A stretch of 35,419 nt of DNA, from positions 1-35,419 of the forward strand of contig CACYBG010000281.1 in NCBI GenBank assembly GCA_902772605.1, given 5' to 3'. This document shows, piece after piece, positions 9,754-34,192 of this stretch. Both the position numbers and the translations under genes were made by a program. The notes beneath the pieces are model-generated. The model ran no database searches. It was not told the DNA's origin and saw only the letters and a list, made by a program, of their open reading frames with translations. This DNA is from an uncultured Spirochaetaceae bacterium. Lineage in GTDB: Bacteria; Spirochaetota; Spirochaetia; Treponematales; Treponemataceae. Positions within the stretch are counted from its first letter, which is position 1. Each line of letters starts with the position of its first letter.

Positions 9754-10230
9754 ATGAGGTGTCCGTCATGTGGAAGTCTTGACGACAAGGTTATAGAATC
9801 CCGCTCTATGGTCAACGGGGAAAGCATAAGGAGACGGAGGGAGTGCAACCAGTGCCACTACCGGTTCACGAGTTATGAGAGGATAGAGGAAAAGCCCTTC
9901 ATGGTCGTCAAGAAGGACGGACGAAGGGAGCCTTTCGACCAGGAAAAGGTTGCACGGGGAATAGAACGCGCACTTGAAAAACGTCCCGTCTCCACTACCA
10001 TGACCGAGCAGATCGTCACCGAAATCGTTGACGAGGCATATACCCAGGGAAAGATTTCCAGGGAGATTCCGACTTCAGAGCTCGGTGAGATAGTCCTCAA
10101 GAGACTCAACGACGTGGACAAGGTTGCGTACATCAGGTTTGCATCCGTGTACAAGCATTTCAGCAACCTCGAGGAATTCATAACTGAAGTTCAGCAACTC
10201 GAAGAAACCGATTCGATGAAAAACTCCTGA
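9754..10230 (+). CDS. nrdR: Transcriptional repressor NrdR
   Basis: Zn ribbon CPSC...IRRRRECNQC..RFTSYE, ATP cone VVKKDGRRE, and VAYIRFASVY. RBS GGAGG. Confidence 0.97.
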   Translation: MRCPSCGSLDDKVIESRSMVNGESIRRRRECNQCHYRFTSYERIEEKPFMVVKKDGRREPFDQEKVARGIERALEKRPVSTTMTEQIVTEIVDEAYTQGKISREIPTSELGEIVLKRLNDVDKVAYIRFASVYKHFSNLEEFITEVQQLEETDSMKNS

Positions 10231-10614: not shown

Positions 10615-10687
10615 TAGTGGCAAGTGGGATCGAACCACCGACATACGGAATATGAGTCCGTTGTTCTACCGACTGAACTATGCCACC
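10615..10687 (-). tRNA. tRNA-Met(CAT), elongator type; CCA not encoded
   Basis: GGTGGCATAGTTCAGTCGGTAGAACAACGGACTCATATTCCGTATGTCGGTGGTTCGATCCCACTTGCCACTA forms a cloverleaf with anticodon CAT. G1-U72 pair and no triple G-C anticodon stem, so not an initiator. Ile2 cannot be fully excluded. Confidence 0.93.
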
Positions 10688-17823: not shown

Positions 17824-17896
17824 GGGCTATTAGCTCAGTAGGTAGAGCAACGCCCTTTTAAGGCGTGGGTCTGCAGTTCGAATCTGCAATAGCTCA
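17824..17896 (+). tRNA. tRNA-Lys(TTT); CCA not encoded
   Basis: Acceptor GGGCTAT/ATAGCTC-A, D arm GCTC/GAGC, anticodon arm ACGCC-CTTTTAA-GGCGT, T arm TGCAG-TTCGAAT-CTGCA. Confidence 0.96.
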
Positions 17897-32990: not shown

Positions 32991-33092
32991 ATGACCGAAA
33001 GGCCGGATATTTAGGGTTATTGTTAACACTTCATAATCCGCTTTCGGAGTATGAAGCGTTTCCTTAAGTCCGGTCGTTTTTTTTCGGGTCAT
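32991..33092 (+). terminator. Large nested hairpin and terminator after GH57
   Basis: Outer ATGACC/GGTCAT, GGCCGGA/TCCGGTC followed by a T8 run, inner CTTCATA.TCCG/CGGA.TATGAAG. Confidence 0.55.
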
Positions 33093-33105: not shown

Positions 33106-33200
33106 AAAAAAAAACGCTCTGCCAGTGGGATTAGTGGGAAAAGCTGACAGAGCTGAGTGGGAATCGTTCAACATAAATAGTGGATTTACATTGAAACTAT
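33106..33200 (-). ncRNA. Candidate ~95-nt small RNA with four C-rich (U)CC(C)ACU motifs
   Basis: Own TTGACA-N17-TATACT promoter. Hairpin 1 is UUCAAUGUAAAU-CCACU-AUUUAUGUUGAA. The terminator hairpin is GCUCUGUCAG-loop-CUGGCAGAGC plus U9. No plausible ORF. Confidence 0.78.
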
Positions 33201-33205
33201 GTGTG

Positions 33206-33234
33206 AGTATACACTAGATATAGTGGCATGTCAA
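33206..33234 (-). promoter_or_regulatory. Near-consensus sigma70 promoter of the candidate sRNA
   Basis: TTGACA-TGCCACTATATCTAGTG-TATACT. Confidence 0.85.
33211..33226. promoter_or_regulatory. NrdR box-like operator
   Basis: ACACTAGATATAGTGG matches the NrdR consensus acaCwAtATaTwGtgt at 14 of 16 positions and lies in the promoter spacer. Confidence 0.7.
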
Positions 33235-33457: not shown

Positions 33458-34192
33458 TTACTTTGCAAGCTTTCCGGACGGCTGGATTATGCGCCTCTCG
33501 ACTGCAGAACAGGCCTTCTGGGGCTGAACCTTACTGTTGGTCGTGACTGCAGTGACTTTCTTGGACTTGCTTGGAACCTCGGACTTCTTTGAAACGTTTT
33601 CGGTAACCTCGTATTTTCTTGGACGGCCACCCTTCTTTCCGTTCTCACGTGCGGCAGCCGATTTCTTTTCGCTTTTCGTTCGTCCCATCAACGAAGCGGC
33701 CATGCATGCATTGGAAATCTCCTCGTTCTTCCACTGGGAGAGCTTGTCTGCATCGCCCTTGAGGGTTGCGATTTCCTTCAGGAATTCAGAAGCCATCATG
33801 AATTTCTCGCAGATGTTCTTCATCAGCATCGGATTGCGACCAAGTCTCATTCCTGCAAGAATGTCATCAATCTGCCGAACCATGTCGTTTGCTAGGTCTG
33901 AAAGATTTTCTACGCATGAAGCGCTGCTGCCCGTACCGACCCTTTCCTGAACGCGCCTGGTATTGAACGAACCCAGAGCTTCGATTACGTCCCTATCGTC
34001 GGTTTCATTTAGCATGATTGCGGTCGACTCTTTTTCCAATGAGTGGCACAGGAAAATCATGGACAGCTTGAAATCCATGTTTCTCAACCGATTCAGCTCT
34101 TCAAAATTTGAGGCAGGATTCTGACTCAAACACATGATGGTGTCTTGGAGGTTCTCTTTCAACCCCCGGATGTCTTTGAGAGTAACTTTCAT
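33458..34192 (-). CDS. Hypothetical protein with basic KSAAARENGKKGGRPRK (AT-hook-like) motif
   Basis: 244 aa with a helical N-terminus and basic disordered tail. RBS AAGGGGA. Own promoter TTTACA-N17-TAAGCT and own terminator. Confidence 0.8.
   Translation of the reverse strand: MKVTLKDIRGLKENLQDTIMCLSQNPASNFEELNRLRNMDFKLSMIFLCHSLEKESTAIMLNETDDRDVIEALGSFNTRRVQERVGTGSSASCVENLSDLANDMVRQIDDILAGMRLGRNPMLMKNICEKFMMASEFLKEIATLKGDADKLSQWKNEEISNACMAASLMGRTKSEKKSAAARENGKKGGRPRKYEVTENVSKKSEVPSKSKKVTAVTTNSKVQPQKACSAVERRIIQPSGKLAK

Follow-up and report, generated by a model that had tools for sequence, protein, structure and literature searches.

Two questions are raised by a short stretch between two coding sequences in the genome of an uncultured Spirochaetaceae bacterium: does it encode a regulatory RNA, and if so, what controls that RNA and what does it act on? 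The stretch lies within a window of 35,419 nucleotides. A preliminary description had claimed a minus-strand transcription unit with a promoter, two hairpins, C-rich motifs and a closing run of nine U, and all of these elements were found where it had placed them (Table 1). Its other structural claims held as well, as none of the three minus-strand frames is open across the unit, and the predicted RNA folds at −23.2 kcal/mol (z = −5.09), a value equalled by 0 of 200 shuffles, against a different and weaker fold of −18.9 kcal/mol on the plus strand. The flanking sequences are a GH57 branching-enzyme gene and a 244-aa open reading frame, whose protein has no match in Pfam or NCBIfam. The comparison with Rfam proposed in the preliminary description matched no already described family: the whole window yielded two tRNAs only, raising E up to 10 added four matches far below gathering, and seven homologous loci gave nothing except tRNAs, with no LhrC, RsaE, 6C, StsR or other sRNA family at gathering score. 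The unit is real and conserved, and it is predicted to yield a trans-acting small RNA. Directly downstream of the terminator there is a dispersed hairpin repeat with 25 more genomic matches (E up to 0.01) and no Rfam match. Its copies at other loci are deeper in RNA contigs, and it may be a REP-like or small mobile element.

Table 1 Features of the window that bear on the predicted sRNA, with neighbouring features
Feature	Position	Strand	Basis or remark
-35 hexamer TTGACA, sigma70-type	33229-33234	-	Sequence; TTGAC kept at this position in 39/39 homologous loci
NrdR box 1 (predicted)	33211-33226	strandless	Fills the 17-nt promoter spacer; last base is the first of the -10 hexamer
-10 hexamer TATACT	33206-33211	-	Sequence; spacing kept among homologues
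Predicted sRNA, ~94 nt	33106-33200	-	Start inferred, +/- 2 nt; fold and conservation as a unit
Hairpin 1, 12 bp, loop CCACU	33167-33195	-	Fold
NrdR box 2 (predicted, weak; proximal half-site intact)	33168-33183	strandless	27-bp spacer from box 1
Linker, 13 nt, single-stranded, with UCCCACU (third CCCAC motif)	33154-33166	-	Fold
Terminator loop, 18 nt, two tandem CCCAC motifs (predicted seed)	33126-33143	-	Fold, target predictions
Intrinsic terminator	33106-33153	-	10-bp stem (33153-33144 with 33125-33116) and U9 (33114-33106)
nrdR, presumed repressor gene	9754-10230	+	TIGR00244, 184.8 bits, cut-off 124.65
Flanking 244-aa ORF	33458-34192	-	Basic tail with GGRP
Hairpin repeat, ~50-60 nt	33009-33067
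tRNA gene	10615-10687	-
tRNA gene	17824-17896	+

Homologues of the unit were recovered from 39 of 338 genomes of the window's genus (rumen and gut Treponema), 31 as short forms and eight as long forms, a count that represents a lower bound. The exact terminator-loop pattern occurs in 24 of the 338 genomes, with one match each and none for the reversed control, and all 24 matches have the same promoter and spacer box upstream, neither of which is part of the pattern. A covariance model of the 3' domain, applied to 151 of the 338 genomes, added six further carriers, each with promoter and box. The reverse search, based on promoter and box without any RNA sequence, matched 29 of the 338 genomes (control, 2), and all 29 matches head the same RNA family, comprising 20 known carriers, one new short form and the eight long forms. 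A variant promoter-box pattern restricted to one spacer class gave seven matches, which likewise all head the family. The long forms (~136-160 nt) hold the short-form hairpin internally, followed by an extra conserved loop and the terminator. The sequence of hairpin 1 is replaced wholesale across lineages with its hairpin shape retained. The genes next to the unit form many unrelated groups, the most frequent upstream gene being shared by 16 loci, and homologues of the 244-aa flanking protein lie upstream of the sRNA at 16 loci.

These patterns bear on the simplest alternative, namely that the locus is a bidirectional terminator joined to a chance promoter and makes no functional RNA. The unit does sit between convergent or tandem genes, and the RNA contigs of eight runs carry no strand-specific signal, but promoter, box, spacing and loop travel together through many gene contexts and every promoter-box match heads the same RNA, which leaves this explanation scarcely credible. 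Part of the region is present in 15 RNA runs; those eight all consist of contigs without strand or ends, which touch the unit in three runs and give no cover in five, and the contigs of one run also cross the sRNA promoter (DNA or read-through). Of the features whose conservation was to be checked in Treponema, the box is kept in the 39 carriers, the terminator-loop motifs are lost in G179, the CCACU loop is missing in several, and in a MAFFT alignment two-sided covariation of the terminator stem was found at 0 of 10 pairs (93.4% paired), below the shuffle control. Direct comparison of the stem revealed one U-A to C-G change between subfamilies.

In a database of genome contigs, 22 of 32 matches were real and ten were chance matches without promoter; 21 of the 22 belong to Treponema, Treponemataceae or Spirochaetaceae assemblies, many of them from rumen or gut, and one is titled as another family. 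All named carriers seen are metagenome-assembled genomes. No homologue was found among 393 genomes of the order outside the genus, searched with a pattern blind to long forms, or in viral contigs, and the family is so far restricted to one genus. In a MraZ tree of 66 rows, the short forms occupy one 36-row clade that includes six apparent non-carriers, five of which hold no hidden homologue, and the long forms occupy a separate clade. Weak covariance-model matches were considered as hidden homologues and discarded, 15 of the 16 examined being ordinary terminators, and 20 NrdR-like box sites in non-carriers have no such RNA attached.

Identifying the regulator begins with the promoter spacer, which had been described as a 14/16 match to the NrdR box. 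Box 1 indeed differs from the NrdR consensus at two positions. The 2.2-Mb assembly of the window's genome (G000) contains only one other such site, upstream of nrdD, which is present in this genome. We scored sites with a palindromic matrix seeded by the consensus and trained only on the nrdD upstream regions of 31 genomes, 27 of which have the canonical 31/32-bp tandem box pair there. With this nrdD-trained version of the genome-derived matrix proposed in the preliminary description, box 1 scores 21.9 bits. This places it first among the 21 sites of G000 that exceed 10 bits, ahead of nrdD's own site (20.8 bits); as background, 10 of 1598 upstream regions of this genome reach 10 bits. Across the 39 sRNA loci, box 1 scores 10.7-22.2 bits (at least 15 bits in 36 of them) and overlaps the core promoter, 7-9 nt past the TTGAC start, in every case.

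The second box claimed to lie 43 bp away does start at that distance from box 1, but it is weak (4.0 bits), and some carriers have no second box above zero bits. NrdR is reported to bind box pairs with 14-17 or 24-27-bp spacers, a single box being insufficient and two required (PMC12051234). When 90 offsets were scanned across 38 distinct loci, 42 of 43 half-site matches facing box 1 fell at offsets 31-32 or 41-43, with a half-site at +43 in 22 of the 38, and these offsets match the two spacer classes accepted by NrdR (PMC12051234). As CCACU, the loop of hairpin 1, forms the conserved half of box 2 and is lost from several homologues, it probably acts as a DNA signal instead of a third RNA seed. 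Of the C-rich RNA loops originally described as repeated, those in the terminator loop and the linker stand, and the CCACU loop is better explained as part of NrdR box 2.

As had been claimed, nrdR itself lies in the window, 24 kb from the sRNA and behind tmk, aroB and iscS-like genes, with no NrdR box in its upstream 300 nt. In a relative, box-like palindromes lie upstream of nrdR (L006, G015:C137, near 45800), which suggests that this copy is autoregulated. We consider it very probable that the sRNA is under NrdR control, and the predicted free-standing, NrdR-controlled, trans-acting sRNA of the preliminary description is supported by conservation, by the varying neighbours and by the nrdD-trained matrix. 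LexA was rejected as the repressor: lexA is found in five of five carriers, but its upstream region scores at most 4.2 bits, and the motif in the sRNA promoter is that of nrdD. The idea that NrdR acts directly on mraZ in non-carriers was also rejected. Single sites above 10 bits were seen in six of the 28 non-carriers and in one of the 38 carriers, without forming a pair; the six sites in non-carriers overlap the start codon of the divergent gene. Two further sites in G000 were observed. About 500 nt upstream of nrdD (G000:C139:12300-12490), short tandem repeats accompany a third NrdR-like box of 13.6 bits, and a single site at G000:C54:3355-3370 (17.2 bits, third in the genome) occupies the promoter of a gene which we take, from its sequence, to be ribosomal-protein-L34-like, downstream of dnaN/recF-like genes.

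As a target, the preliminary description had named, speculatively, the class of GUGGG-repeat leaders such as mraZ/dcw. When G000 was scanned for tandem GTGGG, three places besides the sRNA unit emerged. One of them is the predicted 5' leader of mraZ-rsmH-ftsL, whose MraZ boxes 1-2 (contig C292, 948-969) are matched in antisense by the terminator loop. The leader measures ~35-45 nt here and is short in all carriers seen. It lies behind a TTGAC-17-TAAAAT-type promoter in carriers and non-carriers, and, judging from the position of this promoter, the transcript should include three or four MraZ boxes; in M. genitalium, transcription starts inside MraZ box 1 (PMC12957436). Searched against both strands of the assembly, the loop forms its best non-self duplex with the mraZ leader, at −27.1 kcal/mol, the next duplex reaching −26.5 (a margin of 0.6). 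By loop hybridisation the leader ranks first among 1885 gene starts, which are crude calls on an assembly 66% complete, so that better targets may be missing; on raw energy, 2 of 34 shuffled loops equal it. When the cost of opening the target is included, the leader reaches −26.6 kcal/mol and the second-placed gene start −16.6; none of 32 shuffled loops comes within 4 kcal/mol of the real one (best, −22.4). Whole-RNA cofolding also places it first, of 1865.

Among the relatives, the subfamily G091/G014/G351/G201/G299 has a loop that is near-perfect 19-20-nt antisense to MraZ boxes 1-2, and a 19-nt pattern with up to two mismatches occurs in all five of these genomes at two places only, once in the mraZ leader and once in the sRNA gene, on its antisense strand, with no match for the control. 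More broadly, in 24 of the 35 genomes compared, the native RNA pairs with the native leader better than any of 30 dinucleotide shuffles, the weakest being G009 and G317. GUGGG repeats are found in the leaders of non-carriers too, 19 of 28 having two or more, and are kept there because MraZ binds them. One sequence would here have two uses, as a protein operator in DNA and as a predicted sRNA site in RNA, which suggests that the sRNA loop arose by an inverted copy of the MraZ operator.

Loop and leader also vary together. With row and column effects removed, cognate loop-leader pairs beat non-cognate pairs (P ~ 9 × 10−5, 14 distinct loops), although kin are non-independent and this value is overstated; over five groups, the same comparison gave 2 of 120 permutations, overstated for the same reason. 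Three long-form genomes (G109, G317, G356) combine ATGGG in leader box 2 with CCCAT in the loop where their sisters have GTGGG and CCCAC, a paired change that is probably one event. The 20-genome group that includes the window shows almost no loop-leader covariation, the loop is unchanged in G009, G135, G116 and G240 with a pairing to boxes 1-2 of only −14.9 to −18.3, and G179 has lost the loop motifs.

The repeats could also act as DNA, as an operator or decoy for MraZ inside the sRNA gene, or the RNA could titrate a protein instead of pairing with mRNA. The opposite strand of the loop does resemble two MraZ boxes, with the correct 10-bp phase in one subfamily. However, MraZ boxes consist of GTG(G/T) with six spacer bases, usually number three or four, and are bound cooperatively (PMC12957436). 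The sRNA gene has two boxes only, some of them broken, at a period of 8-10 (8 or 9 in most carriers), and does not qualify as such an operator; the motifs also lie in unpaired loops of the predicted folds. In G091, G110 and G169, a GTG to GCG change (CCCAC to CCCGC in the loop) breaks the MraZ box and keeps a G-U pair. These CCCGC changes, together with the period of 8 or 9, favour RNA pairing over a DNA operator, and we regard an action as DNA or by titration as very improbable. The protein-sponge role that had been raised as an alternative found no support in the present analysis.

A different possibility accepts pairing with mRNA and widens its scope. The RNA could be a multi-target sRNA of the UCCC type, in the style of LhrC or RsaE, that blocks G-rich ribosome-binding sites, with mraZ as one target or as a by-product of shared G-rich words. 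The layout of LhrC is alike, with C-rich motifs in loop, linker and terminator loop (PMC4132741), the loop is unchanged in carriers whose mraZ match has decayed, and the long forms add a second conserved loop. Against this, the next gene start lies 10 kcal/mol behind the mraZ leader, the 19-nt match is unique in five genomes, loop spacer and box covary with the mraZ leader, and no second conserved target was found. The nrdD leader was rejected, its 8-nt linker match being confined to G000 (1 of 31 genomes) and ranking 24 of 1885; the rsmH start is third for the linker on raw energy and falls to rank 347 of 1865 after cofolding. We therefore judge the multi-target reading rather improbable. Of the UCCC anti-Shine-Dalgarno seed that had been described, the unpaired UCCC motifs are indeed there, but they appear to form part of a long antisense match to one operator-derived leader. 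Being top-ranked in the genome and covarying with the loop, the mraZ leader, once a speculative suggestion, is probably the main target of the sRNA. In the window's subclade, where the mraZ match is weaker, a G-rich tandem GTGGG stretch precedes rsmH (L035 about 1470-1545, G000:C292) and is, by folding, sequestered within its own hairpin.

What such pairing would do to cell division is less clear-cut. Our preferred model, which is tentative and falls somewhat short of an even chance, is that the NrdR-repressed sRNA silences the whole mraZ-rsmH-ftsL message, so that dNTP shortage slows division. NrdR acts as a repressor when it carries both dATP and ATP, and it loses this activity when ATP is its only ligand (10.1101/2025.03.28.645925), so the sRNA would appear at low dATP. 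As dATP falls, NrdR would leave boxes 1 and 2 and the near-consensus sRNA promoter would fire along with that of nrdD. The open 18-nt loop would then pair with MraZ boxes 1-2, which closely follow the predicted start site of mraZ, the stem would unzip, and the linker is predicted to lengthen the duplex toward the ribosome-binding site and start codon of mraZ. This would proceed without Hfq, which was not found in five of five carriers. In the least certain steps, the long duplex would block initiation and invite RNase III to cut close to the 5' end, the polycistron would decay, unstable FtsL would drop and septation would wait. RNase III is present in four of five carriers, the exception being the 66%-complete G000. 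In B. subtilis, FtsL depletion arrests division, and repression of the mra operon upon replication arrest has been proposed (10.1101/2022.02.09.479790).

The same NrdR control and the same pairing could also act with the opposite sign. If only mraZ translation were blocked, MraZ would fall, the operator would be freed and rsmH-ftsL-ftsI transcription would rise, so that a high demand for dNTPs, as at replication onset or in regrowth, would bring more division protein. Because the operon is repressed by MraZ itself, loss of MraZ would raise transcription, buffering or reversing a brake. Moreover, the loop duplex ends beside the likely mraZ ribosome-binding site, rsmH, which begins ~100 nt past mraZ, has an initiation region to itself and is, as noted, a poor target once accessibility is considered, and mraZ loss gives short, hyper-dividing B. 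subtilis cells (10.1101/2022.02.09.479790). On the other hand, a duplex of 19-20 bp or longer at the extreme 5' end is a plausible RNase III substrate, and StsR, the sole sRNA known to act on a mraZ leader, lowers the whole transcript according to PMC8266604. We consider this outcome unlikely and nonetheless a strong rival. Silencing of the whole operon is preferred given the long 5'-end duplex, the StsR precedent, the unstable and rate-limiting FtsL and the proposed repression of mra in B. subtilis; provided that the mraZ leader is the main target, we moderately favour a brake over a release.

Comparison with known systems places the treponeme sRNA near several of them: it shares its predicted target with StsR and its layout with LhrC, and is a member of neither. 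StsR of Rhodobacter sphaeroides, likewise a trans-acting sRNA, base-pairs with the 5' UTR of mraZ and reduces dcw mRNA, limiting division, as the pairing predicted here might; it is RpoHI/HII-induced and Hfq-bound and acts on a long leader (UpsM) via RNase E (PMC8266604). Here, in contrast, the predicted regulator is NrdR, the site is the MraZ operator read as RNA, Hfq was not found in the carriers searched and Rfam gives no sequence kinship; a long mraZ leader with internal terminator of the StsR type was encountered in none of the carriers seen. With LhrC1-5 of Listeria and the RsaE/RoxS type, the sRNA shares two stem-loops, a linker, unpaired UCCC motifs that include the terminator loop and, by prediction, Hfq-independent pairing (PMC4132741). 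It differs from them in being single-copy per genome, in a tandem UCCCAC whose spacer covaries with one target, in its regulator and phylum, and in having no Rfam match. The 6C RNA of Actinobacteria is also a cytosine-run small RNA under a DNA-stress repressor (LexA) and affects a division pause, but its regulator differs, the treponeme sRNA has no Rfam match to it, and the account consulted gives 6C neither a known target nor a proposed mraZ pairing (PMC5014011).

The promoter resembles those of the NrdR regulon in that a 16-bp palindrome lies across its core, a further site follows in helical phase and the motif equals the nrdD boxes (PMC12051234; 10.1101/2025.03.28.645925), except that the controlled gene is non-coding, not a reductase, and that the second box is weak. 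In the open-licence PubMed Central and bioRxiv literature, as distinct from subscription papers, regulon databases and supplementary motif tables, we found no NrdR-controlled sRNA or comparable Treponema sRNA. The family thus appears to be undescribed, with good comparative support for predicted NrdR control and for the mraZ leader as candidate target. We lean, by a modest margin of confidence, towards a first non-coding member of the NrdR regulon that would read the MraZ operator again as RNA, a dATP/ATP sensor wired to the division operon and co-evolving with its target in gut treponemes. The extension of the Fur regulon by RyhB offers an analogy for NrdR and this sRNA. The direct NrdR regulon has been argued to stop at ribonucleotide reductases, with the proposal that in E. 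coli and P. aeruginosa paired-box repression is confined to the operons of these enzymes (10.1101/2025.03.28.645925); a boxed sRNA would extend it. If true, the circuit would represent a nucleotide-pool checkpoint on division separate from LexA/SOS, and it bears on how bacteria link DNA-precursor supply to division outside SOS. The system is also compact, consisting of one RNA and one 45-nt leader with natural compensatory variants.

Finally, the long forms (L132, L139, L143, L144, L149, L156, L157, L160) have one more hairpin, in whose loop AUCUAACCAUC is conserved, as well as a terminator loop with CUCCCA; in a target search for the extra loop, matches were no commoner than in the control. 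A terminator region at the 3' end of L073 (G139:C63:55582-55635) has repeated AUCUAACCUC motifs in its linker and loop, like the extra loop of the long form, and is possibly a 3'UTR-derived sRNA.
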